Below are positions 31,612 to 47,455 of a stretch of 64,000 nt of DNA, in pieces; within the stretch, counting starts at the first letter, position 1, and every line of letters starts with the position of its first letter. This stretch comes from an uncultured Candidatus Saccharibacteria bacterium. GTDB taxonomy: Bacteria > Patescibacteriota > Saccharimonadia > Saccharimonadales > JALRHH01. The notes beneath the pieces were generated by a model. The model did not search any database, was not told the DNA's origin, and saw only the letters and a list, made by a program, of their open reading frames with translations. Both the position numbers and the translations under genes were made by a program. The stretch covers positions 42,926-106,925 of the forward strand of contig CAZPVS010000001.1 of the NCBI GenBank assembly GCA_964590315.1, given 5' to 3'.

Positions 31612-32850
31612 ATGGCGAGATTACCAGTACCTGGCAGTGATGATGGCACCTGGGGCGGGGTGCTGAATGATTTCCTGGCCCAGGAGCATAATGCTGATGG
31701 CACCCTCAAGATAAAGACTGACGGTACCCTTGCCGCCAAGGCTAATGATAGTACGGTTGTTCACGTTTCTGGGAACGAATCAATCGGTGGAACGAAAACG
31801 TTCGTGTTGTCGCCGGTAGTTCCCGCTCCCACTCTCGGATCGCAGGTAGCTAATAAAACCTATGTAGATACACAAGTTGCTTCGGGAATACCTGATGGGT
31901 CAGTCACTGCTGCAAAGATTGCAAGCGATGCTGTAGATGATTCTAAGGTTGCCCCGAGTGCGGCTATTGCCCAGAGCAAGGTTGCTAACCTTACGACAGA
32001 CTTAAGTAACAAGGCCGATAGTTCTGCAGTTATCATGCGTTCTATTGCAGATGCCAAAGGCGACCTAATCGTGGCGACCGCGAATGATACGGTAACACGA
32101 CAGGCTGTGGGAGGTGACGGTCAGATTTTGTTTGCAGATTCAGCGGAGCCAACAGGTATACGCTGGGCAAATGCGCCTGCTAGTGGAGAGACAAATACCG
32201 CAAGCAATGTTGGTGCTACTGGTGTCGGTGTGTTCAAGCAAAAAAACGGTGTAAACTTTGAATTTAAGAATATCGCAGCGGCATCTAGCAAAGTCACTGT
32301 CACAGATGATGGCGCAAACGATGAGATTGATGTAGATGTGAATGAAGCTAACTTCAGCGGCATTCCTCAATCGGCTGTGACCGATCTAACCACCGACTTA
32401 GCTGCTAAAGTTGATGATACTGAGAAAGGTGTGGCTAATGGTATAGCAACACTCGATGCGGGCACTAAAATTCCTGTCGGCCAATTACCTACAGCAGCTA
32501 CTGCGAGGGTCCTACCATATTCATATTACGGTAGTTTGATGGTAAGCACGGGCACCTTCCGGCTCTATAATGATAGTGGAACAGATTGGACAGTTACGGG
32601 TGTTCGCGCTTCACTCGGCACGGCGCCAACAGGAACAAGTGTCATTATTGATATCAACAAAAACGGAACAACGTTGTTTACCAACCAAGCCAACAGGCCA
32701 ACTATTGCGATTAGTTCTAATACGTCAGGAAATGTTACAAATATGGATGTCACTACTATTGCAGACGGTGAATACTTAACGGTTGATATCGATCAAGTGG
32801 GCTCCGGAACTAAAGGTGCAGATCTAACAGTACAGGTAGGAGTAGCGTAA
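31612..32850 (+). CDS. phage-tail-fibre-like secreted protein
   Basis: N-terminal [19 protein letters not shown] and an internal [17 protein letters not shown] motif of the kind seen in tail-fibre/receptor-binding proteins. T/S/A/V-rich beta repeats. Confidence 0.45.
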
Positions 32851-33866
32851 TGGCATTATTGTTTATGGATGGATTTGGTGGCGGCACCGACGCCACTCAG
32901 AAATGGGATATAACGAGTACTGCATACAGTACGCAGACAGCAACGCCCAGAACGCCCGGTTGTTACTATGGGAGGCTAACATCTGTCCGTAACATGTACA
33001 AATCGTTTACCCCTTCTTCGAAAATTGTTATCGGGATAGGCATATTCTCGCCAGATCGAGCGTGGAATTTTAGTTTTAGCGGGGACGGAGGTGTCACAAC
33101 ACACATCACCATCGTATGGAACATGGGAACGGGCATGCTCGAGCTCAGAAGGGGCACCTCGAGCGGGACTCTTCTTGTCACCGGTACGCAACCGTTATAT
33201 CAAAACCAATGGAACTATATTGAAGCATCCGTGACTATATCAGATACCGTAGGTGAGGTGCATGTTCGTCTAAACGGCTCACCCACTGATGAAATATCTT
33301 TTGTAGGAGATACCAAAAACGGAGGTACGAATACGACAGTTGATAAGTTCACTATATACTCTGGAAACGGTGCAGCGTCATATATTAATATCTCAGACTG
33401 TTACATATTGAATGATACCGGAAGCTCTAATAATGATTTCTTAGGTGACGTCGTTGTCCGTACATTAAGCCCGTCTAGTAACGGGACCTACACGCAGCTA
33501 ACTGGCTCTGACGGGAACCAAATCGACAACTATTTGCTTGTTGATGAGCATCCGTATAGCTCAACTGACTATGTGGGTAGCGCGACCCCCGGAGATAAAG
33601 ATACGTACGTATTTGAAGATTTACCGGGTGGTGTAGCTACTGTTCATGCAGTACAGGTAAACGGTATGATGTCGAAAAACGACGGAGGGGTTGCCTCTGC
33701 ACGGTACGTAATACGATCTGCTGGGAGCGATTATCCAGGCACCACACGTGCTTTGACGACCTCATATACGGCATATCAGGAACTGCACGAGACCGATCCT
33801 GCAACAGGAATATCGTGGACACCAGCAGCTGTCAACGACCTTGAGTCGGGCATGGAAGTCATTTAG
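32850..33866 (+). CDS. hypothetical beta-rich (jelly-roll-like) protein
   Basis: Start codon overlaps the upstream stop (translational coupling). S/T/G/N-rich composition. Confidence 0.4.
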   Translation: MALLFMDGFGGGTDATQKWDITSTAYSTQTATPRTPGCYYGRLTSVRNMYKSFTPSSKIVIGIGIFSPDRAWNFSFSGDGGVTTHITIVWNMGTGMLELRRGTSSGTLLVTGTQPLYQNQWNYIEASVTISDTVGEVHVRLNGSPTDEISFVGDTKNGGTNTTVDKFTIYSGNGAASYINISDCYILNDTGSSNNDFLGDVVVRTLSPSSNGTYTQLTGSDGNQIDNYLLVDEHPYSSTDYVGSATPGDKDTYVFEDLPGGVATVHAVQVNGMMSKNDGGVASARYVIRSAGSDYPGTTRALTTSYTAYQELHETDPATGISWTPAAVNDLESGMEVI

Positions 33867-33892
33867 CTAATCGCATACGGTGAGGGATACCC

Positions 33893-35164
33893 ATGAGCTA
33901 TATTACTGAGCAGGACGCAGATACACCTCTTTCTCGCTGGCAATTTGAGGAAGTTGCTGGCAGTACCATTGATGATGATATTACCGCTACCCGTGATGGC
34001 ACCATTAATGGCGGCGTGACACTAAACCAGAGCGGTGCTTTTAATAATAAAGCAGGTGTAGGCGCGGATTTTGACGGTACATCGGGGTATGTGAACTTTG
34101 GGGACGCTGCTGGCTTGCTCGGTATTGGTACTATCGAAGCCGTTGTACAATTCGATACCATTCCAGGTTCTGCTGCCAATCCTATCTTTACACATGCCTG
34201 GTCTGGTGGACAGATTATTCCACTTGCAATTGGCTTCAATATTGATTCTGCCAACGCAGGCAAACTACAGGTAGGTTATTTTACCGGAGCTGTCTGGGTT
34301 ACTGCTACATGGTCAACCGCCCCAACGGCAGGTGTCGCGTATCACATCGTTGGTACGTATGATGGCACTACACTGAAGCTACGCGTTAATGGCAGTGAGG
34401 TCGCCGTGACAACAGTAGGAACGGTTCGTCCAGGCGCAGGTGTCGTTAATGCTTCAGCATACATTGGCCGGAGGTGGGATACGGCACAATATCATGATGG
34501 CCGTATATTCGATGTTGCAATATATGCTGCAGCGCTTAGTGATGTTAGAGCGAATGCTCACTATGCCGCGCTTGCAAATGAGTTTGCGGATAATTTTGCT
34601 GATGCAGGTATTCTATCCGACGGCTATCAGATTTCGGGAATCGATACAACTACGTGGACAACTGAAACAGGAGAGCCGGGGACGATAGATAAAACAGGAT
34701 GGACAACCCTTACTCCAACTGTGTCTGGTCCGCACACTCTTTCTACGGTTGGCTCGGACCATGACACCATTCTCAATGTGTACACCGGAACAATAATTGA
34801 TAGTCTGGTGCTGGTTGCCTCCGATGATGATTCAGGGGGTTCCGGAACATCTTATCTTACGACGCAGCTCACAAGTGGAACGACATATTACGTGCAGGTT
34901 GGATCACCACTTGCTGGGAGTGGAGGTATCCTTTCGTTCAGTGTTTCTCATAATGCGAATGCACAGCTGTCGGCTATTAGCACTGAGGCGCTCGTTCTCG
35001 CATCTGGCGCAGAGCGAACCATGACTGCCATGGCCGTGGAGGCCTTGATAGACACGGGAATTGCCGAGCGGATGATGAGTAGCATATCTGTCGAGGTATT
35101 AGTACCTGCTCGCCTTACTCATGCTGGCTGGGGCGTGCCAGTGCGTCCTCAGGATTGGACATAG
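33893..35164 (+). CDS. LamG-like (Laminin_G_3 / concanavalin-A-like lectin) domain protein
   Basis: FDGTSGYV...VGTYDGTTLKLRVNG matches the Laminin_G_3 signature. C-terminal 3 x 18-aa repeats (ISTEALVLASGAERTMTAM...). Confidence 0.55.
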   Translation: MSYITEQDADTPLSRWQFEEVAGSTIDDDITATRDGTINGGVTLNQSGAFNNKAGVGADFDGTSGYVNFGDAAGLLGIGTIEAVVQFDTIPGSAANPIFTHAWSGGQIIPLAIGFNIDSANAGKLQVGYFTGAVWVTATWSTAPTAGVAYHIVGTYDGTTLKLRVNGSEVAVTTVGTVRPGAGVVNASAYIGRRWDTAQYHDGRIFDVAIYAAALSDVRANAHYAALANEFADNFADAGILSDGYQISGIDTTTWTTETGEPGTIDKTGWTTLTPTVSGPHTLSTVGSDHDTILNVYTGTIIDSLVLVASDDDSGGSGTSYLTTQLTSGTTYYVQVGSPLAGSGGILSFSVSHNANAQLSAISTEALVLASGAERTMTAMAVEALIDTGIAERMMSSISVEVLVPARLTHAGWGVPVRPQDWT

Positions 35165-35168
35165 CCTC

Positions 35169-35630
35169 CTATGGAGTTTGTAAAAGCCGCAGTTCTTTTA
35201 TTATCTCCGCCGCATGGGTTTGCACGTTAACCCTCGGGTATTCTTTGACTATATAACCTTCAGGATTGATAATATATGTCGATCTTGTTATACCAAAAAT
35301 TTCACGGCCGAATAACTTCTTGGGTTTCCATGCACCGTATGCCGAAATCACGATATGGTCGGGGTCGCTTAGTAACGGAAAGTTGAGCCGGTGCTTTGTG
35401 GCGAAACGTTTATGGTCTGCCACACTGTCCATACTGATACCAATTACCTCCGCGTTGCCAAGCTGACGAATCGCTTCGCGGCCATCCCGAAAGTTGCATG
35501 CTTCAGCAGTACACCCCGGTGTATCATCTTTCGGATAAAAATAGAGGACGAGCCATTTCCCCGTGTAGTCTGAAAGACGGTGACGAATACCATTTTGATC
35601 GAGGAGAGAGAAATCCGGTGCTTGTCTCAT
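35169..35630 (-). CDS. bcp: peroxiredoxin (Bcp / PrxQ family thiol peroxidase)
   Basis: APDFSLLDQNG...YFYPKDDTPGCT active-site motif. The internal ATG (MRQAP..) is the likely start rather than the track start at 35708. Confidence 0.8.
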   Translation of the reverse strand: MRQAPDFSLLDQNGIRHRLSDYTGKWLVLYFYPKDDTPGCTAEACNFRDGREAIRQLGNAEVIGISMDSVADHKRFATKHRLNFPLLSDPDHIVISAYGAWKPKKLFGREIFGITRSTYIINPEGYIVKEYPRVNVQTHAAEIIKELRLLQTP

Positions 35631-35685
35631 GTAGATAATATTGTAACACTCTGAATGCACGCAAACTGGTACAATACCTCTTATC

Positions 35686-36420
35686 ATGCACGTAGAACTC
35701 GCCAACAAACAAGCATTCCAGGAAATCCTTGCCCACTATCAGCCTGCACCCGAATCAATCGGTATACTGAGTCGCATCCCCCTGGTTATTTTATTGGGTG
35801 TTTCAGGGAGTGGGCGAAATACCATTATTAATCATCTCGCTAAGACTGGAAAGTATCGGTACATCATTTCCGACACGACTCGTCCTCCCAAGGTACGAGA
35901 CGGCAAAATAGAACAACACGGTGTCAATTATTACTTCCGGAGTGAAGAAGATGTTCTGCAAGATTTACGTGAGGGGAGATTTCTTGAAGCCGAGCTGATA
36001 CATAACCAACAGGTATCCGGCATGAGTATACGTGCTCTGACGGAGGTTGCCGAAAGCGGCAAAATTCCTATTAATGAAGTCGATATTGGTGGTACCGATA
36101 ATATACTGAATGCCAAGCCGGACACACATTTTTTCTTTATTATCCCCCCTAGCTATGAGGAATGGATTCGTCGACTTAATGCGCGTGAAGTTATGACCGA
36201 GAAAGAGCGCAATAACAGAGTCAGTACCGCAATACGTGTCATCGAGAAGGGACTGAAGGAGGACCATTTTACGTTTGTTATCAATGATTCATCGGAAGCA
36301 TCTGCCCACAAAATCGACGAGCAAATACGCGGGGTTCGGGATACCGGTCATCACGATGAAGCCCGCGAGGTGGCTCGACGAATACTTGAGGATATCAAGC
36401 ACCACTACATACTCAGCTAG
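35686..36420 (+). CDS. guanylate-kinase-like family protein
   Basis: P-loop GVSGSGRNT and the DTTRPPKVRDGKIEQHGVNYYF guanylate-kinase signature region. Confidence 0.55.
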   Translation: MHVELANKQAFQEILAHYQPAPESIGILSRIPLVILLGVSGSGRNTIINHLAKTGKYRYIISDTTRPPKVRDGKIEQHGVNYYFRSEEDVLQDLREGRFLEAELIHNQQVSGMSIRALTEVAESGKIPINEVDIGGTDNILNAKPDTHFFFIIPPSYEEWIRRLNAREVMTEKERNNRVSTAIRVIEKGLKEDHFTFVINDSSEASAHKIDEQIRGVRDTGHHDEAREVARRILEDIKHHYILS

Positions 36421-36500
36421 TACATCGTGGCAAATCTTTGACACAATAAAACACTTGCTTTATTGGCATACCTGGAATACCTTAAGTATAAGCAATATAT

Positions 36501-37991
36501 GTGTTGGAAATTATGAAAAAATTACATTTAGTAGTATCAGGTGCCATATTGGCAGTCTTGGGGTTAGCCATAGGTTTCAGCGGTGTTTTTGCTGCAACAG
36601 GAAGTATTTATCTTGCCCCTGCAACAGTTAGTGTGCAAAAAGACAGTAATGTCACAGTCGCTGTTCGTATTAACCCTGGAACAAATGTCGATGGTGTAGA
36701 GGCCAACCTAACGTTTGATACGACCCAACTGAAATTCATCGGATTTAACTCGGCGGGGACTCAGTTCGATGCCAAGTTAATGGAAAAAGTCACTGGTGGG
36801 ACAGTGAATATCGCTCGAGGGAACCTCAGCGGGGGAGTGAGCTCTGATGCCCTGGTCACACAAGTGATATTTCAGGCTGTTGGGAGCGCAGGTAGCATAA
36901 ATGTAAACCTCACGGGCAATGCCACAAGCAGTGGATCATATACATCACCCAATACAAGTGGTGCAACTATAAAGATTACCGTGCCGACTACTCCGCCACC
37001 AACCACTACGCCGACAACCCCACCACCAACACAGGATCCAGCTCCGTCAGCTCCAACTAGTCCTGCGCCTAGTGCTGACCCAGGCACCACTAATACGCCC
37101 CCGACAAACACGAATGGTTCTGATGGATCATCCTCCCCAGGGCAGGCTGCCTCAAGTGGCTCGGCCGTTAATGTAAGTAGTAGTGACATTCAATTCACGA
37201 AAGCTGGCATTGAACTCAAGAGCGAGAAACCTTTTAAAGCTTATATAGTCTATGGCACCAATGGCCAACTAAACTTACAAACTGCGCCAACAGAATTGGG
37301 AACAAAGCATACGGTTGTGCTGGACGAGTCTAAATTACAACCAGGCACCTCGTATCAGTTTAAGATCATCAGTGAAGATGCAAATGGGGTCCGTTCTGAG
37401 TCAACGGCCCAGACATTTAAGACAAAAGGCTACACACTTCGGATAACCATTCTTGGGAAGAGCAATAAACCACTCAAGAAACAGCAGATTACACTCTATT
37501 CTGACCCGCAAAAGGCAAGGACTGACAATAGTGGCGTGGCACTCTTTGACAACGTTAGCCCAGGTACACATACCGTTGAATATGAACAGGATGGTAAGAA
37601 GTACTCCCAAAAAGTATTGGTAGATAACACCGTAGTAACCGGAGGCGACGGGAAACAAACCGCTGAGCCACAGAATATTGCGGTACTGTATGATGATCTC
37701 GAGGTACCAGCTACACAAAATATACTTATACTGAGTAGTATATTTGCAGGGCTGCTCCTGATCGGTGCTCTATTTATCCTAAAGAAATCAGGCTTCGTGG
37801 CACAGAAGAAGTTTGCTTCAGCTCACAGTGTGATAACTACTACGACAGTCTCGCCGCCATCAAGCGCACCAGCAAACGTTACGGAAAAACCTGAAGACAC
37901 TGCTCCTATATTCCAACAACAATACCAGAGCCTCCCACAGCCAGGCTCGACAGTTAACCCCGTTCGAAACGATAATAACGAGGATAAGTGA
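36501..37991 (+). CDS. membrane-anchored surface protein with an N-terminal cohesin-like domain, P/T linker and a carboxypeptidase-regulatory-like beta domain
   Basis: Signal peptide. The cohesin-type block ATVSVQKDSNVTVAVRINPGTNVDGVEANLTFDTTQLKF. A PTTPPPTTTPTTPPPT linker. C-terminal TM helix ILILSSIFAGLLLIGALFIL. Confidence 0.55.
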   Translation: MLEIMKKLHLVVSGAILAVLGLAIGFSGVFAATGSIYLAPATVSVQKDSNVTVAVRINPGTNVDGVEANLTFDTTQLKFIGFNSAGTQFDAKLMEKVTGGTVNIARGNLSGGVSSDALVTQVIFQAVGSAGSINVNLTGNATSSGSYTSPNTSGATIKITVPTTPPPTTTPTTPPPTQDPAPSAPTSPAPSADPGTTNTPPTNTNGSDGSSSPGQAASSGSAVNVSSSDIQFTKAGIELKSEKPFKAYIVYGTNGQLNLQTAPTELGTKHTVVLDESKLQPGTSYQFKIISEDANGVRSESTAQTFKTKGYTLRITILGKSNKPLKKQQITLYSDPQKARTDNSGVALFDNVSPGTHTVEYEQDGKKYSQKVLVDNTVVTGGDGKQTAEPQNIAVLYDDLEVPATQNILILSSIFAGLLLIGALFILKKSGFVAQKKFASAHSVITTTTVSPPSSAPANVTEKPEDTAPIFQQQYQSLPQPGSTVNPVRNDNNEDK

Positions 37992-39499
37992 TCATGGCGG
38001 TCCTAGGTTTATTCTCACGAAAGACAATCCTCGTCTTATTGGGATCGGTCCTATTACTCATTGCTGTGCAGACAAATTCTGCGCAGGCTGCATGTTCCGC
38101 GCAACCTACGACCTACGGAAGCTCCACAATGACGGTGAACGTACCAAATGCCGGAACGTACCGCGTCTGGAGCCGAATTATGGCACCAAACACAACTGCC
38201 AATTCTTATATTCTTGAGGTAGACGATACAACTTGTAATATTGTCGTGGGTGACAGTGCTATTGCGGCAAATACGTGGACATGGGTTGATTACAAGAGTG
38301 CAACCACAACAAATAAAGTGTCATTAACCCTGACTGCAGGTCAGCATACATTTAAGATGATTGGGCGCGAAGCCAATGTTAAGTTAGATCGTATTATTTT
38401 AACTGCTGACACGACTTGTGTTCCGACAGGAACGGGAGAAAACTGCGCCAATCCACCTGACACAACCCCACCCGTAGTGGCTCTATCTTCACCGGCCGCT
38501 GGTGCAACGGTATCGGGCCCCACTGCAATTCGAGCCACGGCGAGTGATGACGTGGCTGTAAGCAAGGTAGAATTTTATGTTAACAGCACCCTCAGGGGTG
38601 CCGATACCTCTGCAGCAACCGGTGGCGTTTATGAAGTCACCTTTGATATGTCATCATTAGCTCCTGGCCAGCACACTATATATGCCCGGGCTTATGACAC
38701 ATCTTCATCGGGTAATCCCGTCAGCAGCAGCATCCGATCAGTTACTGTCGCAGACAAAACTCCTCCAACGGTCACCCTAACGACACCTACGGCTGGTGCA
38801 ACCGTGTCAGGAACAAGTACGTTCTCAGCAAACGCCACTGATAATGTAGGGGTGACCAAAGTTGAATTCCTCGTTGATGGTGCTGTTGTCGCCACTGATA
38901 CAGCTTCTCCGTATACCGTTTCTGTCGATACAAAACTATTCACTAACGGAGCGCATACCGTTATAGCTCGAGCTTCCGACGCTGGTGGCAATACGACCCC
39001 AACTGCAGGGGTGAATATAACTGTCAGCAACATCACGGTGCCCGTTGACACCACTCCCCCAACGGTATCCATAACGAACCCCGCGTCCAGTGCGACTATT
39101 TCAGGGACAGCAGCATTCTCTGCAAACGCCACTGATAATGTAGGGGTGACCAAAGTTGAATTCCTCGTTGATGGTGCTCTGAAAAGTACTGACACAACCG
39201 CTCCTTATGACTACAGCCTTAATACCTCTACGCTTACTAACGCTGCACATAATCTGACTGTAAAAGCTTACGATGCAGCTGGTAATATGCAGACAAACTC
39301 AGTGAGTGTAACGGTTTCAAACGTGACGTACCTCAGGGAGGACATCAATAGCGACGGTACAGTCAACATCCAAGACTTCAGCCTTCTTGCAGCCAAGTTC
39401 GGGCAAACAGGTTCAAACCTAGGGCGTGAGGACATCAATAGCGACGGTACAGTCAACATCCAAGACTTCAGCCTTCTTGCAGCCAAGTTCGGGGCTTAA
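37988..39499 (+). CDS. secreted protein with three Ig-like (Big) repeats and two C-terminal dockerin-type repeats
   Basis: Signal peptide. Three repeats of TPPTV..P..GATVSG....A.A.DNVGVTKVEF.VDG. Two copies of REDINSDGTVNIQDFSLLAAKFG, which is a dockerin Ca-binding repeat pattern (D.N.DG.VN..D). Confidence 0.6.
   Translation: MIMAVLGLFSRKTILVLLGSVLLLIAVQTNSAQAACSAQPTTYGSSTMTVNVPNAGTYRVWSRIMAPNTTANSYILEVDDTTCNIVVGDSAIAANTWTWVDYKSATTTNKVSLTLTAGQHTFKMIGREANVKLDRIILTADTTCVPTGTGENCANPPDTTPPVVALSSPAAGATVSGPTAIRATASDDVAVSKVEFYVNSTLRGADTSAATGGVYEVTFDMSSLAPGQHTIYARAYDTSSSGNPVSSSIRSVTVADKTPPTVTLTTPTAGATVSGTSTFSANATDNVGVTKVEFLVDGAVVATDTASPYTVSVDTKLFTNGAHTVIARASDAGGNTTPTAGVNITVSNITVPVDTTPPTVSITNPASSATISGTAAFSANATDNVGVTKVEFLVDGALKSTDTTAPYDYSLNTSTLTNAAHNLTVKAYDAAGNMQTNSVSVTVSNVTYLREDINSDGTVNIQDFSLLAAKFGQTGSNLGREDINSDGTVNIQDFSLLAAKFGA
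39338..39493. repeat. tandem 66-bp perfect direct repeat (period 90 bp) encoding the two dockerin repeats
   Basis: gaggacatcaatagcgacggtacagtcaacatccaagacttcagccttcttgcagccaagttcggg occurs twice. A ~64-bp near-identical repeat also sits at ~38822 and ~39116 (the Ig-like repeats). Confidence 0.8.
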
Positions 39500-39510
39500 T
39501 ACAAGCTATC

Positions 39511-39536
39511 TGGCACTCTGGACTTTTGAGTGCTAG
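39511..39536. promoter_or_regulatory. CIRCE operator (HrcA binding site) upstream of hrcA
   Basis: TGGCACTC-N9-GAGTGCTAg versus the consensus TTAGCACTC-N9-GAGTGCTAA. A tacaat -10 box follows. Confidence 0.75.
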
Positions 39537-39556
39537 GAAGCTACAATAGGGTCATT

Positions 39557-40261
39557 ATGACGGAGCGTCAAAATCACATTTTACGCGCTATTGTTGAGCA
39601 GTATGCAGAAGTCGCCAGTCCCGTGGGCTCAAGTTTGCTCGCAAAAGTATTCGGCGTGTCTTCTGCTACCATACGGTCAGAGATGGCTGAGCTTGAGCGC
39701 GCGGGATTCATTATGCAGCCTCATACGAGTGCGGGCCGCATACCAACCGACAAAGGCTATCGACTGTATGTCAATAGTCTTACGGAGCATCATGAGTCTG
39801 CCTCGGAACACCGTGCCCAGCGTGCTTTGGCTGCTCGGGTTGAAGGCGGGGGGTTGCCAGAGCGGACTATTCGAAACGCGGTAGATACACTGGTTGAGCT
39901 GACGCATAACCTTGGTATCGCAACTATTGGGAACCAGTTGTATATGAGCGGATTATCCAACTTATTTGGCCAGCCAGAGTTTGCGAGTGGCAACCAGGTA
40001 CAACAAGTTGCCCGTTTGCTCGATAATCTTGAGCCGTGGTTACGAGAAGCAGCTCCAAATGAGCCGTTGAGTGTTTATATTGGGGCGGAAAACCCGATTG
40101 GCCGGAGTGCTGGCGCCAGTCTCATAATTTGTCGCTTCCGAAGTCCATACAGCGATCATAGCTACATAGGTGTGCTTGGCCCGACACGCCAGCAATATCG
40201 TAATGTTATGAATCTCGTGGAACACGCAGGACGATCACTGGAGGAAGTTCTGTATGCTTAG
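39557..40261 (+). CDS. hrcA: heat-inducible transcription repressor HrcA (compact form)
   Basis: N-terminal winged HTH (RQNHILRAIVEQYAEVASPVGSSLLA) and the C-terminal IGVLGPTRQQYRNVMNLV motif. The track start at 39530 is GTG; the ATG at 39557 is preferred. Confidence 0.85.
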   Translation: MTERQNHILRAIVEQYAEVASPVGSSLLAKVFGVSSATIRSEMAELERAGFIMQPHTSAGRIPTDKGYRLYVNSLTEHHESASEHRAQRALAARVEGGGLPERTIRNAVDTLVELTHNLGIATIGNQLYMSGLSNLFGQPEFASGNQVQQVARLLDNLEPWLREAAPNEPLSVYIGAENPIGRSAGASLIICRFRSPYSDHSYIGVLGPTRQQYRNVMNLVEHAGRSLEEVLYA

Positions 40262-40475
40262 TGATAGCGTGCGTGCAGAGCTTGTTTCGGTACACCTGGA
40301 AGCAGCAAAAGATAGAGATGAGGGGCTACTATTTTGTGCAAATGCACGAATAGAAGCGGCGCGACTCACTATTTTTTTGAGTGGGTTGAGCTGGGAGGAC
40401 ACAGATGTTGCTGACCGGGAAGCTACAGAAATCGTGAATGATTTCAATGAAGAAATGAGGAGGCTGAATGTCTAA
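40254..40475 (+). CDS. hypothetical 73-aa protein overlapping the hrcA end and the grpE start by 8 nt each
   Basis: ORF in a third frame. Acidic. Possibly translationally coupled. Confidence 0.3.
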   Translation: MLSDSVRAELVSVHLEAAKDRDEGLLFCANARIEAARLTIFLSGLSWEDTDVADREATEIVNDFNEEMRRLNV

Positions 40476-40992: not shown

Positions 40993-41334
40993 TTGGGGAG
41001 CAGGGACATGTCATTTAGTCCGAGTGGCGGAAATATTTCAGGAGCTGACGATGTTGCACTGAGCAATCCTCAGGACGAACATGTGCTTACGTATGATAGT
41101 GGAACAGCGAAGTGGACCAACCAAGCACTCTCTGCTTCGTCACCAACTTACGAGAATCTCCCTGCCGGCACCACCGTTACGGTGACAAAAACGGCCGGTA
41201 CATGGCCGGCACGCCCCACAGCCCGCACCGATATTGTCGTGATTTGGAAAGGTGCAGACCCCTCGCCAGCAATTGTCTCGTCAGGTACAGGCGGTATGCT
41301 CGATGGCGTTGATATGAGGTTTGTAACTGCATAA
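40993..41334 (+). CDS. hypothetical small secreted or tail-fibre-tip-like protein
   Basis: DDVALSNPQDEHVLTYDSGTAKWTNQ motif. Preceded by its own promoter-like ttgttc-17-tatagt. Confidence 0.35.
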   Translation: MGSRDMSFSPSGGNISGADDVALSNPQDEHVLTYDSGTAKWTNQALSASSPTYENLPAGTTVTVTKTAGTWPARPTARTDIVVIWKGADPSPAIVSSGTGGMLDGVDMRFVTA

Positions 41335-42197
41335 TGGCAAACTTACTCTGGAATGTATCCCAATCGCAATTGCAACGGCGGGGTGTTGCCCAGGACGCCG
41401 TCATAAATATACTCAACACTGATTTTGACGCTTTTCCAGTGTCTGATCCCATAACCATAGAAAATTATCGGACTGCAATGGGCATGACAAGCGGTGGCGG
41501 ATCATCTACAGTCGCTCGGACTGCTATCGTCTCAGAAGCTGGCCGAGGCAATGTTATACGACAGCACTTCCATGCTGGACAGTACGGTACTGCTGACGGT
41601 ATCTCTGTAAACGCGCCGCTAACAATGACTGTCGATGAGGCCACTATCACTTTTGATGTTCGTTTCACTGGTGCCAGTTTTGACTGGGGATGGGGCGGTA
41701 AATTACCGGGGCTCGCGGGTGTACGACCTGGGTACGGGAGTCCACCTTCAGGTGGCGTTCCATCTTCGTACGGATGGTCTTGTCGTGGTATGTGGATTAC
41801 CCCTGGGTCATATCCGGGCTCTTCAAGTGTACCAAATGAATTGGTTGGATATATGTATGACCCTACGCAGCTACCTGGTAATTATGGCCAAAACCGCCAA
41901 ACCAATGTTTCTTTTGTGGCCGACCAGTGGCATACCGTCAGACAGTACTACAAGATGAATACGGTCAATGTAGAGGGGGTATCCGGAAACGCTGATGGGA
42001 TTCATCTTATGTGGCTGGACGACGTTCTTGTCTATTCAAATTATACCCAAGTCTATCGTATCTACGAGGAAGCGCGTATCACACATCTTATGTGGAGTAT
42101 GTTTTACGGCGGTAATACGGTTGACTGGGCGCCAGCCATAGATACCGATATTGATATCGATAATCTACTCATTACCACACCTGTCTGGAGCAATTAG
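41334..42197 (+). CDS. possible polysaccharide-lyase-like jelly-roll protein
   Basis: DWGWGGKLPGLAG...SCRGMW...YMY resembles the conserved core of Polysacc_lyase/PL-like families as I remember it. Not verified. Confidence 0.4.
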   Translation: MANLLWNVSQSQLQRRGVAQDAVINILNTDFDAFPVSDPITIENYRTAMGMTSGGGSSTVARTAIVSEAGRGNVIRQHFHAGQYGTADGISVNAPLTMTVDEATITFDVRFTGASFDWGWGGKLPGLAGVRPGYGSPPSGGVPSSYGWSCRGMWITPGSYPGSSSVPNELVGYMYDPTQLPGNYGQNRQTNVSFVADQWHTVRQYYKMNTVNVEGVSGNADGIHLMWLDDVLVYSNYTQVYRIYEEARITHLMWSMFYGGNTVDWAPAIDTDIDIDNLLITTPVWSN

Positions 42198-42199
42198 AT

Positions 42200-43213
42200 A
42201 TGGCAGTATTACAAAACAATGCTGAAGGAGGAACAGTCGGGGTTACCGTTACAACTGGTAACTCAGGGGGGGCATCAGGTGATGCATTTAATCAGGTCAC
42301 GATAACCGGTGCATCGTCATGCGTGTTCGCCAACAACGTGAGTGCACACGGCACACAGTCCTATCGTATTACAGGCATAGCGGGCGATACGGCTAAGTTT
42401 TATTTAGGTGCTTCAGATACTGCAGAAGGTTCGCTGAGAGTTTATTTTTACCTGAACAATCTACCAAGTACTGCCCAGAGCGTCTTCCAGATGCAGAATT
42501 CTTCGTTTAGTAGCATGGCAAGCATTAATCTGACTGCGTCTAACCAACTGCGAGTGACCGATACAACAGGTGCAACCTTATTCACCGCCGCGGCTTCTTT
42601 GAGTGGATCTACCTGGTACCGTATTGAAATGCAAGTTATCGCCGGAGTAGATGCAAGCAGCGGTACGATACATTTCCAATATTATCAGGGTGATTCAACA
42701 ACCGCTGAAGAAACGTATAGTAGTACTACAGTTAACACGGGCACCATTACCGCTCGCCGACTGCATGTGGGCAAAATCAATTCCAGTCCGGCTCTTGATG
42801 CTAATTTTGATGACATTGCTTATGACTCTACCGCTACGGCAATCGGGCCATATGGGGCGAATGTGCCACCTGTTGCGATCGCTGGCCTGGATAAGAGTTA
42901 TGTTGAGCCTTATGCGACTGTTACGCTCCAGGGGGGTGGATCATCTGATAGTGACGGAAGCATCACAAGTTATACCTGGGTGCAGACGGCAGGTACTCCA
43001 GCTGTGACCTTGAATGGTAGTGGTGCATCACGAACTTTTACTGCGCCGGCTACTATCGCAGGCACGACACTGACCTTCGGGCTTACGGTGACAGATAATG
43101 ATGGCGCCTCGTCCACACAAGATACAGTGTCTATCACGATTCTTCCTGTGACGGAAAGAGCAGTGATTGGCGGTGTGGAAGTACCCGCACAACTCTACGC
43201 AGCACAATCATAG
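42200..43213 (+). CDS. secreted protein with a LamG-like N-terminal domain and a C-terminal PKD/Ig-like domain
   Basis: The C-terminal AIAGLDKSYVEPYATVTLQGGGSSDSDGSITSYTWVQTAGTPAVTLNGSGASRTFTAP...LTFGLTVTDNDGASSTQDTVSITI segment is a classic PKD domain pattern. Confidence 0.5.
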   Translation: MAVLQNNAEGGTVGVTVTTGNSGGASGDAFNQVTITGASSCVFANNVSAHGTQSYRITGIAGDTAKFYLGASDTAEGSLRVYFYLNNLPSTAQSVFQMQNSSFSSMASINLTASNQLRVTDTTGATLFTAAASLSGSTWYRIEMQVIAGVDASSGTIHFQYYQGDSTTAEETYSSTTVNTGTITARRLHVGKINSSPALDANFDDIAYDSTATAIGPYGANVPPVAIAGLDKSYVEPYATVTLQGGGSSDSDGSITSYTWVQTAGTPAVTLNGSGASRTFTAPATIAGTTLTFGLTVTDNDGASSTQDTVSITILPVTERAVIGGVEVPAQLYAAQS

Positions 43214-43223
43214 TCCTGATATA

Positions 43224-43250
43224 TTGGCACTCTTGACACATGAGTGCTAA
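43224..43250. promoter_or_regulatory. CIRCE operator upstream of dnaK
   Basis: TTgGCACTC-TTGACACAT-GAGTGCTAA. A -10 tacaat follows, and a degenerate second half-site TTAGCACTC sits at ~43271. Confidence 0.8.
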
Positions 43251-43316
43251 TTTTTTATGCTACAATAGTATTAGCACTCATACATAGTTATTGCTAACGG
43301 AAAGGGCAAAACCACA

Positions 43317-45659: not shown

Positions 45660-46319
45660 ATGAGTAAGACAAAAATTCCTAACCCCATGCATGGCCGCCG
45701 CCGCGTATTCATGGGTGTTACCATTCAGCAGGCATTTCCCTATATTCTTATCATAACGGCAATTATTGGATTCGTTGCGTCCTTTGTTCTGACACTTGAG
45801 CATATGGAATTACTGAAAGATCCAAATTATGACCCGACATGCAGTATTAACCCTATTTTAAGCTGTGGACCCGTTATGGGAAGTCCAACAGCCACGCAGT
45901 TTGGCTTTCCGAATCCTCTGATGGGGCTGGCCAGTTTTGCCGCTCAGGCCGTTATAGGACTTGCCCTCCTAGCAGGAGCTCGTATCAAAACATGGTTTTG
46001 GCGGTTATGGGGTATGCAGGTGGCAGGTAGTGTGGCGTTTACGTTGTTCCTGATGCAGCAGAGTATTTTTGTTATCAAGGCGCTCTGTATCTACTGCATG
46101 GCGGTGTGGATAATCATGAGCATTAGTGCATGGTACACCGTACAGTACCTCCTTGCAGAGGGGCATATCGGGAAGCAACAGAGTAAGACTACCCAACTGG
46201 TTCGTAAATACCACGCCGATATCCTTCTTGTATGGTTCTTGTTGGTCATTTGTTTGATTTTGTGGGAATTCTGGTACTTTTTTGGGCCGAAGTTAGGGCT
46301 TGCATCACTGGCACTCTAG
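45660..46319 (+). CDS. vitamin K epoxide reductase (VKOR) family protein
   Basis: Loop cysteine pair CSINPILSC and the active-site CIYC in a TM helix. Confidence 0.7.
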   Translation: MSKTKIPNPMHGRRRVFMGVTIQQAFPYILIITAIIGFVASFVLTLEHMELLKDPNYDPTCSINPILSCGPVMGSPTATQFGFPNPLMGLASFAAQAVIGLALLAGARIKTWFWRLWGMQVAGSVAFTLFLMQQSIFVIKALCIYCMAVWIIMSISAWYTVQYLLAEGHIGKQQSKTTQLVRKYHADILLVWFLLVICLILWEFWYFFGPKLGLASLAL

Positions 46320-46334
46320 ACTTTTGAGTGCTAA
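46309..46334. promoter_or_regulatory. CIRCE operator upstream of dnaJ
   Basis: TGGCACTC-TAGACTTTT-GAGTGCTAA. Confidence 0.8.
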
Positions 46335-46354: not shown

Positions 46355-47455
46355 ATGAGTAAACGAGATTATTATGAAGTTCTTGGCGTCGATAAGGGCG
46401 CATCAGCCGACGAAATAAAAAAAGCATTTCGTCGTCTTGCCGTGCAGTATCACCCTGATAAAGAGGGTGGGGATGAAGCCAAGTTCAAGGAAGTCAACGA
46501 GGCATATGAAGTCTTAAAAGACGATAAAAAGCGTCAGCGCTATGATCAGTTTGGACATGCCGGTGTCGGGGGCGCGAGCGGCGGCGGTAACCCCTTCGAA
46601 GGCTTTAGTGGTTTTGGTGGCCAGGGACAAAACGTTAATTTCGATTTTGGAGATCTCGGCCTTGGCGATATTTTTGGCAGTTTCTTTGGCGGAGGGCATC
46701 AACGCAAACAACAGCATCGCGGGAATGACATCGAAACATTGGTGGAGGTGGAATTTGAGCAAGCGGTGTTCGGCACAGAAGTTGATCTTAACCTCAATCT
46801 TGAAGATAACTGTGAACACTGCAAAGGTACGACCGTTGAGCCTGGCCACGAGCTGAAGACGTGTGATGAATGTCACGGCTCCGGGCAAACCGTGCGTGTC
46901 ATGCGCACGATGTTCGGTAATATCCAGCAAGCAACAGTTTGCCCGACGTGTAAGGGGAACGGCAAGGTCCCAGAGAAAGTATGTTCCGTTTGTCGCGGTA
47001 GCGGCACACAGCGTACTAAGCAAACAGTTGCCCTCAAAATTCCTGCGGGCGTGGACGATGGGGCGGTTATTAGATTACGTGAACACGGTGAAGCCATTGC
47101 CAACGGGCCAAAGGGCGATCTGTATGTCAATATTCGCGTCAAACCGCACAAGAAATTCACCCGTGAAGGCGACTTAATTCTTTCTGAAGAAGCAATAGAT
47201 ATGGTTGACGCAGCACTTGGTATCGAAATAAAGGTAGATACTGTCGATGGCCCAATCACCATGAAAGTTCCTGCCGGTACCCAGAGTGGTACGGACTTTA
47301 AATTATCCAACCACGGCGTACCTCATTTACGTAAAGAAACTCGAGGTGCCCACATTGTGACGGTCGTCGTTCAGACCCCGACCAAGCTCAATAAGAAACA
47401 ACAGCAACTACTCGAAGAATTCAAAAATTCCAAAAAAACCGGCCTCTTCAACTAA
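46355..47455 (+). CDS. dnaJ: molecular chaperone DnaJ
   Basis: J domain with HPD (YYEVLGV...YHPDK), a G/F-rich region and 4 x CxxCxGxG. Confidence 0.95.

Follow-up and report, generated by a model that had tools for sequence, protein, structure and literature searches.

The cohesin-dockerin interaction is best known from cellulosomes, and its occurrences outside these complexes are, to our knowledge, mostly uncharacterised domain matches. Cultivated Saccharibacteria live attached to other bacteria, by mechanisms that, as far as we know, are still largely unknown. In this study, we analysed two adjacent genes, referred to as gene 1 and gene 2, in a 64,000-nucleotide stretch of contig CAZPVS010000001.1 from an uncultured Candidatus Saccharibacteria bacterium (the whole stretch is called the window below), and propose that they encode a two-gene, non-cellulosomal cohesin-dockerin surface-display module of Saccharibacteria, a lineage of the candidate phyla radiation (CPR/Patescibacteria). 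Gene 1 would supply a membrane-anchored cohesin and gene 2 a secreted cargo that ends in a dockerin. Judged from sequence comparisons, predicted structures and gene neighbourhoods, the probability of this reading is roughly 0.72.

Known anchoring scaffoldins, which are attached to the cell by a sortase LPXTG signal or by SLH modules (2025 review, PMC12484212), are among the closest counterparts of gene 1; ScaE of R. flavefaciens and SdbA, OlpA and OlpC of C. thermocellum, for example, likewise present a cell-bound cohesin that captures a dockerin-bearing partner. Unlike these, gene 1 is predicted to end in a transmembrane (TM) helix and a cytoplasmic tail, has one cohesin and no scaffoldin hierarchy, is accompanied by no carbohydrate-active enzyme (CAZyme) cargo in the locus, and belongs to a CPR bacterium.

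Among the nearest structural neighbours of the gene 1 cohesin are the non-cellulosomal modules of A. fulgidus (2xdh) and of C. perfringens glycoside hydrolases (2w1n, 2jh2, 2vo8), which resemble the present pair in placing cohesin and dockerin outside cellulose degradation. In A. fulgidus, too, cohesin and dockerin are encoded by neighbouring genes. In C. perfringens the modules are carried by secreted enzymes and toxins and join these together, whereas the window would encode an integral membrane anchor and a lectin-like stalk, the latter replaced by a protease in sister loci. The gene 2 dockerin resembles the dual-binding type I dockerins (C. thermocellum; Cel48 of P. cellulosolvens) in its two symmetric 22-residue repeats of a Ca loop and a helix, but differs from them in that its repeats agree in their synonymous positions as well, suggesting recent gene conversion or duplication. 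Possible single-repeat forms in relatives resemble the truncated group-2 dockerins of R. flavefaciens (PMC12270676).

Within the Saccharibacteria, SEML1_0315 of Southlakia epibionticum has been described as an essential envelope protein with a 'dockerin domain' (Wang et al. 2023, PMC10633639). It is likewise a surface protein of Ig/FN3-type domains, for which the authors discuss a possible role as adhesin or host-glycan degrader (PMC10633639). It differs, however, in its length of 927 aa, in having no Pfam domain listed, and in its neighbours, which are a tRNA gene and a gene for an alpha/beta hydrolase and include no cohesin; its architecture and context both speak against orthology with gene 2. 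In the remaining literature searched, cohesins and dockerins of CPR bacteria appear as domain matches only, at times taken as evidence of cellulosomes or as adhesin-like domains. Searches that combined either domain name with Saccharibacteria, Patescibacteria or CPR yielded no account of the present module.

Pairing of the anchor and cargo genes across related loci

Two same-strand (+) open reading frames (ORFs) occupy the whole of 36501-39499, at the coordinates given in a preliminary description of this DNA (Table 1). Gene 1 encodes 496 aa from a GTG at 36501 and 492 aa in the database model P0001, which corresponds to the ATG at 36513; gene 2 encodes 503 aa from a GTG at 37988 and 501 aa in the database model P0012, which corresponds to the ATG at 37994. 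The GTG start of gene 2 overlaps the gene 1 TGA (37989-37991) by 4 nt, as had been described; the ATG removes this overlap, lying 2 nt past the gene 1 stop with a GAGGA sequence 10-14 nt upstream. The genes are tightly packed whichever start of gene 2 is used. A promoter and terminator scan of 35600-40400 gave counts no different from those in shuffled sequence and was uninformative on operon structure.

Related loci were gathered from the anchor side (contigs with gene 1 homologues, together with genome and metagenome scans) and from the cargo side (contigs with gene 2 orthologues), and all six-frame ORFs were scanned with hidden Markov models (HMMs) built from the cohesin and dockerin segments of the family. 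The genome and metagenome scans with the anchor profile used one peptide pattern and returned 3 and 7 loci. At each of the 16 distinct loci that offered enough sequence, a non-random set reached by way of either the anchor or the cargo, the anchor gene directly adjoins a dockerin-bearing ORF, in tandem at 11 and convergently at 5 of them, and the pair occurs in at least four different genomic contexts. Within the window itself, the family HMMs detected exactly one cohesin and one dockerin.

The cargo differs between the two arrangements. Tandem cargos combine a domain similar to carbohydrate-binding modules (CBMs) with Big_7 or FN3 domains, 1-3 of which form the stalk, and a dockerin. Convergent cargos lack Big_7 and consist of a sedolisin-like peptidase domain followed by FN3 and dockerin. 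The ORF of locus L014 matched kumamolisin-As (1sio) at E 1.4e-23 over ~315 residues, and the motifs IAIVDAG, EIALDVE and GGTSLS(S/A)P were found in all five convergent partners. This similarity to the sedolisin/kumamolisin family (MEROPS S53) applies to the cargo of these sister loci and not to that of the window. Pfam gave only FN3 and dockerin for the two convergent partners scanned, the peptidase being recognised by PDB sequence search and by its motifs. Between convergent and tandem cargos, the dockerins differ very little.

Because the dockerin is the only feature of the neighbour gene that stays constant while flanks, orientation and cargo change, the cohesin and the dockerin probably interact, and this is our main argument that they do. 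The self-contained pair proposed in the preliminary description thus receives strong comparative support from the adjacency in 16 of 16 loci. Since sister lineages pair it with a sedolisin-family protease, the anchor appears to be a general holder for adjacent, exchangeable cargo.

The anchor family is large, with 597 cluster representatives found at E<=1e-30; among the 150 best, the majority are matched along their whole length (420-590 aa). All named records belong to Candidatus Saccharibacteria or Saccharimonadales, and the module is widespread in environmental members of this group. A clean division of the anchors by cargo type was considered and rejected: anchors with protease cargo resemble one another more closely (60% identity), yet that of L011 groups elsewhere. 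Five giant proteins of 3100-4400 aa (P0133, P0205, P0225, P0238 and P0256) also align with the anchor profile in 18-26 repeated stretches, the best-scoring of them within its FN3-like part (profile positions ~204-303); their architecture is unrelated to that of the anchor family.

Domain architecture and the rival readings

Because an NCBIfam search of gene 1 found nothing and Pfam gave no cohesin match (PF00963) to its own sequence at E<=1, family-level and structural evidence was used for its N-terminal domain. Five of the 11 family members match PF00963 (best E 2e-7), and the family profile of this domain matched the cohesins 1g1k, 2vn5, 5nrm and 5nrk in the PDB at E 1e-3 to 2e-3, the alignment spanning almost the full length of 1g1k and 2vn5. 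In the AlphaFold2 (AF2) model of gene 1, residues 35-160 are all-beta (pLDDT 70-88) and adopt the beta-sandwich jelly-roll fold of type I cohesins (~140 residues, without the helix of type II). The best Foldseek match of the model was 2w1n, a cohesin and FN3 module of C. perfringens GH84C (E 2.3e-10). Matches to the cohesins 6kgf/6kgc (CaCohA2), 2xdh, 2jh2, 5nrm and 3ul4 had a TMt of 0.71-0.76 (about 0.75 for 2xdh and 2jh2) and a root-mean-square deviation of 2.4-3.5 A, and the type-I cohesin 4dh2 was matched further (3ul4 and 4dh2 are OlpA/OlpC cohesins); sequence identity to the A. fulgidus and C. perfringens cohesins is only 16-20%. Family-level matches, family profile and predicted fold together support the assignment of this domain as a cohesin.

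The dockerin of gene 2 was recognised directly. Dockerin_1 (PF00404) scored 32.3 bits over residues 451-500 (cutoff 22.9, E 1.2e-7), and the P. cellulosolvens Cel48 dockerin 2y3n_B was found in the PDB at E 4.9e-6. Both Ca loops (DxNxDGxxNxxD) are intact, DINSDGTVNIQD and FSLLAAKFG being present twice, and each of the two segments of ~22 residues consists of an EF-hand-like Ca loop and then a helix, as in type I dockerins. D452, D463, D482 and D493 are invariant across 31 aligned orthologues, which were picked mostly for having a recorded dockerin match. The Pfam check proposed in the preliminary description therefore came out clearly for the dockerin, above the curated threshold and with both Ca-loop repeats intact, and narrowly for the cohesin, which was found in 5 of 11 homologues, by the family profile and in the AF2 fold and not in gene 1 itself.

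The remainder of gene 1 largely follows the layout described previously (signal peptide, beta domain, Pro/Thr linker, TM helix), except that two further beta domains, and not one, lie beyond the linker. Around the end of the signal peptide, the family alignment shows no variation at G34 and almost none at A31 and A32. The linker of ~55 aa, with pLDDT <50 at residues 169-220, differs in length among homologues. The beta domain at aa 224-308 is FN3/purple-acid-phosphatase-N-like (sub-threshold Pfam FN3 and Pur_ac_phosph_N), and that at aa 312-396 is CarboxypepD_reg/prealbumin-like (sub-threshold Pfam CarboxypepD_reg at 312-371); these matches are stronger in homologues, and the region 224-396 was modelled with a pLDDT of ~90. 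Since a Lys-rich flank (KKSGFVAQKK) follows the TM helix, the positive-inside rule suggests that the tail lies inside the cell. Pfam shows no SLH domain in gene 1, and the sequence has no LPXTG motif. At its end, the disordered tail has the conserved motif P-x-PG-S/T-x-[IV]-x-P, in which P481 is nearly invariant among 11 homologues, and which might connect the surface anchor to something intracellular.

For gene 2, the signal peptide, the three Ig-like repeats and the two dockerin repeats reported previously were found, and an N-terminal domain of ~125 aa had been overlooked. This domain, modelled with AF2 from 18 orthologues (pLDDT 88), has the beta-jelly-roll fold of the CBM6/35/36 group: almost all Foldseek matches listed were CBM6, CBM35 or CBM36, free-standing or within enzymes (E 3e-4 to 2e-2, TM ~0.45-0.55, identity 13-28%), and its profile weakly matched CBM35 2vzp (E 0.003), 2wz8 and CBM6 1uxz. 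It contains the conserved cysteines C36, C83, C144 and C153. The model thus points to a CBM6/35-like tip, which is followed by the three Big_7 domains (Pfam E 1.2e-53, 3 stretches; PDB matches 3pdd and 9kvu). In some cargo orthologues (L012, L016, P0123) the middle Big_7 is swapped for an FN3/purple-acid-phosphatase-N-like domain, the P0102 cargo has a CARDB-like domain inserted, and the L005 cargo has a single Big_7. Because orthologues differ in these domains, the stalk is best described as modular and variable between lineages, with tip and dockerin retained.

Under the surface-display reading, both proteins would leave the cytoplasm by means of their signal peptides, as read from sequence. 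Gene 1 would be held in the cytoplasmic membrane by its C-terminal TM helix, with the tail inside, while its two compact beta domains and the ~55-residue Pro/Thr linker, which may span the cell wall, would keep the single type-I-like cohesin off the membrane. Gene 2 would be released with its CBM6/35-like tip, its stalk of three Big_7 domains and its terminal two-repeat Ca-binding dockerin, which is expected to plug into the gene 1 cohesin and so tether the lectin-like tip to the cell surface. Because the dockerin repeats are identical, two binding orientations 180 degrees apart would be permitted, that is, a dual-binding mode. In sister lineages, the same anchor would hold the dockerin-tagged sedolisin-family protease. 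Glycan-directed adhesion is the most likely role of the window's pair; that the target is a host bacterium, in keeping with the episymbiotic lifestyle of cultivated Saccharibacteria, is speculation.

Several points weigh against this reading. Gene 1 itself has no direct Pfam cohesin match, the profile matches to solved cohesins are marginal (E ~1e-3), and a cohesin-like beta-sandwich alone does not prove dockerin binding. The fold similarity behind the CBM assignment of the gene 2 tip is only moderate (TM ~0.5), and the window covers only 64 kb of the genome, elsewhere in which further cohesins or dockerins may be encoded. Moreover, the module is not universal in Saccharibacteria, since the annotation table of the cultivated, genetically tractable Southlakia epibionticum contains no PF00404, PF00963 or PF17957 and its gmk directly adjoins hrcA. 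The first two of these points would fit an alternative in which the genes are neighbours whose products do not bind each other, the gene 1 N-terminal domain being a generic cohesin-fold beta-sandwich and the gene 2 dockerin binding a cohesin encoded elsewhere, a glycan or the wall, a role already suggested for many orphan dockerins outside cellulosomes; dockerin-only proteins of other ultrasmall bacteria have been interpreted as adhesins (PMC10066038). We consider this alternative unlikely, because adjacency in every one of the loci despite varying context, orientation and cargo is hard to explain without a functional link, and because the neighbour's dockerin is constant while the remaining protein differs.

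The CBM6/35-like tip, together with a gene for a PL14-like lyase ~1.8 kb downstream (41334-42197), could also indicate a minimal cellulosome-like system, in which the anchor holds dockerin-tagged CAZymes encoded elsewhere and gene 2 is a substrate-targeting CBM subunit, an interpretation that the literature has given to CPR cohesin and dockerin matches. This is very improbable, given one cohesin per anchor and no scaffoldin, the failure of the family HMM to find a dockerin on any other ORF of the 64-kb window (the PL14-like protein included), an alternative cargo that is a protease and not a CAZyme, and the lack of an SLH domain or sortase signal. A cellulosome proper, with a multi-cohesin scaffoldin, dockerin-bearing CAZymes and SLH or sortase attachment, was rejected: the cohesin is single, the sole dockerin of the window is on the non-catalytic gene 2, and gene 1 ends in a TM helix and tail. 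The non-cellulosomal use suggested in the preliminary description agrees with this TM anchor, with the one cohesin, and with the locus having no dockerin-bearing glycoside hydrolase.

Table 1. Features of the gene pair, DNA repeats and operators in the window, and composition of the related loci. Positions are those of the window unless a locus is named; aa, amino acid residues.
Feature	Position or loci	Strand	Basis or remark
Gene 1, predicted membrane-anchored cohesin protein	36501-37991	+	ORF, identical protein P0001, family alignment, AF2 model
Gene 1 signal peptide, aa 1-31/32 (...GVFA/AT)	36501-36596	+	Read from sequence; conservation in family alignment
Gene 1 type-I-like cohesin-fold domain, aa ~33-162, ~130 aa, all-beta, without helix	36597-36986	+	Homologue Pfam matches, profile, Foldseek
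Gene 1 Pro/Thr/Ser-rich linker, aa ~163-221, predicted disordered	36987-37163	+	pLDDT <50, composition
Gene 1 two membrane-proximal beta domains, aa ~222-309 and ~310-397	37164-37691	+	Pfam, AF2
Gene 1 C-terminal TM helix, aa 404-429	37710-37787	+	AF2 helix; hydrophobic stretch in sequence
Gene 1 predicted cytoplasmic tail, aa 430-496, ~67 aa	37788-37988	+	pLDDT <50; positive-inside rule
Gene 2, predicted secreted dockerin-bearing cargo	37988-39499	+	ORF, P0012, GAGGA at 37980-37984
Gene 2 signal peptide, aa 1-34 (...NSAQA/AC)	37988-38089	+	Read from sequence; A34, A35 nearly invariant in 31 orthologues
Gene 2 CBM6/CBM35-like beta-jelly-roll domain, aa ~35-157	38090-38458	+	AF2, Foldseek, profile, weak Pfam GH115_C match
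Gene 2 three Big_7 Ig-like domains, aa ~158-255, 256-353, 354-447	38459-39328	+	Pfam, PDB
Gene 2 dockerin, aa 449-503, two identical 22-aa Ca-loop/helix repeats EDINSDGTVNIQDFSLLAAKFG	39332-39496	+	Pfam, PDB, 31-orthologue alignment
66-nt perfect direct repeat, copy 1 (dockerin repeat 1)	39338-39403	+	
66-nt perfect direct repeat, copy 2 (dockerin repeat 2)	39428-39493	+	Start-to-start spacing 90 nt (30 codons)
57-nt exact repeat, copy 1 (Big_7 domain 2)	38828-38884	+	
57-nt exact repeat, copy 2 (Big_7 domain 3)	39122-39178	+	Spacing 294
Four CIRCE-like inverted repeats	39510-39536, 43224-43250, 43271-43297, 46308-46334		Consensus TTAGCACTC-N9-GAGTGCTAA
Anchor-side loci	window, L001, L003, L005, L009, L010, L011, L012, L013, L014, L016		
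Cargo-side loci	L021, L022, L023, L024, L025/26		
Tandem loci	window, L001, L005/6, L010, L012, L016, L021, L022, L023, L024, L025/26		
Convergent loci	L003, L009, L011, L013, L014		
Flank gmk...hrcA-grpE	window, L001, L024-26		
Flank RNase T...yjbR-dnaG-rpoD	L005, L023		
Flank response regulator and acetate kinase	L010		
Flank DUF1697 and DUF1996 genes	L021		
S53-like peptidase, FN3 and dockerin ORFs	L003 7350-8840, L009 4294-5775, L011 7667-9484, L013 7477-9357, L014 3714-5534	-	
Single-repeat cargo orthologues	L024 2133-3566, L025 3472-4902, L026 2406-3836		Loci syntenic with the window

Symmetry and number of the dockerin repeats

At the DNA level, the perfect 66-bp repeat reported for the dockerin was confirmed as an exact match. 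The ~64-bp repeat reported for the Ig-like domains is really a 57-nt exact match, within a 132-nt stretch of 82% identity (38753-38884 vs 39047-39178). Tandem Repeats Finder detected no tandem array in genes 1 and 2.

Comparison of the dockerin repeats in the 31 aligned orthologues gave a mean identity of 0.73 between repeat 1 and repeat 2 of the same protein, against 0.57 and 0.56 for the like repeat between proteins and 0.54 for repeat 1 vs repeat 2 across proteins; none of 10000 permutations reached the within-protein value. Because identity is higher within than between proteins, the alignment indicates that the two repeats co-evolve. Their codons are identical at 63 of 63 nt in the window, and 16 of 18 shared residues use the same codon in L009. 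In L001, 18 of 21 residues are identical, yet the codon is the same in only 3 of these 18. Since residues match there while codons differ, selection appears to maintain the symmetry in the protein, as a dual-binding dockerin would need, and the perfect 66-nt repeat of the window is read as a recent, lineage-specific homogenisation and not a family-wide feature.

Three close orthologues of gene 2 (P0017, P0018 and P0020; 63-64% identity) are ~27 residues shorter and stop cleanly after one dockerin repeat (...KFGQ, then the stop). Their loci have the order gmk, anchor, cargo, hrcA as in the window, with the anchor gene intact in each, and no remnant of a second repeat was found ahead of the hrcA operator at these loci (L024-L026). 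P0020 is present in two assemblies from different samples. Single-repeat dockerins can work: the group-2 dockerins that occur naturally in R. flavefaciens bind ScaE, and certain engineered half-dockerins lose none of their affinity (PMC12270676). The short forms are either real contractions or the product of an assembler collapsing a perfect repeat, and the repeat instability suggested in the preliminary description is accordingly borne out only in part, single-repeat dockerins being present in three close relatives and assembly collapse offering another explanation for them.

Recombination or slippage between the 66-nt copies might delete exactly 30 codons and leave a single-repeat dockerin, so that cells would vary in the tethering of their cargo. 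The perfect repeat at 90-nt spacing, the one-repeat forms at syntenic loci with an intact anchor gene, the recurrence of one of them in two samples and the ability of cohesins to be bound by single-repeat dockerins (PMC12270676) are all consistent with such variation. We nevertheless regard it as doubtful, since a de Bruijn assembler may collapse a 66-nt perfect repeat and make the one-repeat contigs artefacts, all 31 aligned orthologues (mostly chosen for a recorded dockerin match) have two repeats, the codon divergence in L001 shows that both repeats were long retained, and two copies form no high-frequency phase-variation tract.

Surrounding genes and biological meaning

Four CIRCE-like inverted repeats with 1-3 mismatches were located in the window, against a chance expectation of 0.02. 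The first, 10 nt past the gene 2 stop, is upstream of hrcA; the next two precede the likely dnaK (43317), and the last precedes the ORF at 46355. Because the listed GTG of hrcA (39530) falls within the operator, the ATG at 39557 is the more plausible start. A functional tie of the pair to the hrcA-grpE-dnaK operon was rejected, as loci with unrelated surroundings contain the pair as well and a separate CIRCE operator serves hrcA.

Two gene blocks, 31612-35164 and 40993-43213, break the otherwise conserved LepA...gmk and grpE...dnaK synteny. The former contains a 412-aa BppL_N-like (phage baseplate/tail-fibre-like) protein, a 338-aa protein without a Pfam match and a Laminin_G_3 protein, and the latter a 113-aa protein, the Polysaccharide lyase 14-like protein (E 3e-24) and a PKD-domain protein. 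No obvious signal peptide was seen at the N-termini of 33893-35164 and 40993-41334, the two that were read. Locus L022 has a BppL_N/Beta_helix protein after grpE. The two blocks may be phage-derived.

Compared with known anchors, the module would be new in its TM helix, which takes the place of SLH or sortase attachment, and in its exchangeable cargo, a lectin-like stalk or a sedolisin protease. Its small symmetric dockerin and ~130-aa cohesin could serve engineering as an orthogonal pair. Cohesin and dockerin matches in CPR genomes should not be taken to indicate that cellulose is degraded. The two-gene module, compact and strictly conserved, provides concrete candidates for surface adhesion and feeding factors of Saccharibacteria. 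More tentatively, and in our view with the odds against it, environmental Saccharibacteria might share a lineage-wide plug-in display, in which a lectin-like adhesin or a sedolisin is carried on one socket to attach to and feed on a host bacterium, and recombination between the homogenised repeats, from two to one, alters the hold on the cargo. If true, this host-attachment and feeding role would be the first that any cohesin-dockerin system has in bacterial episymbiosis.

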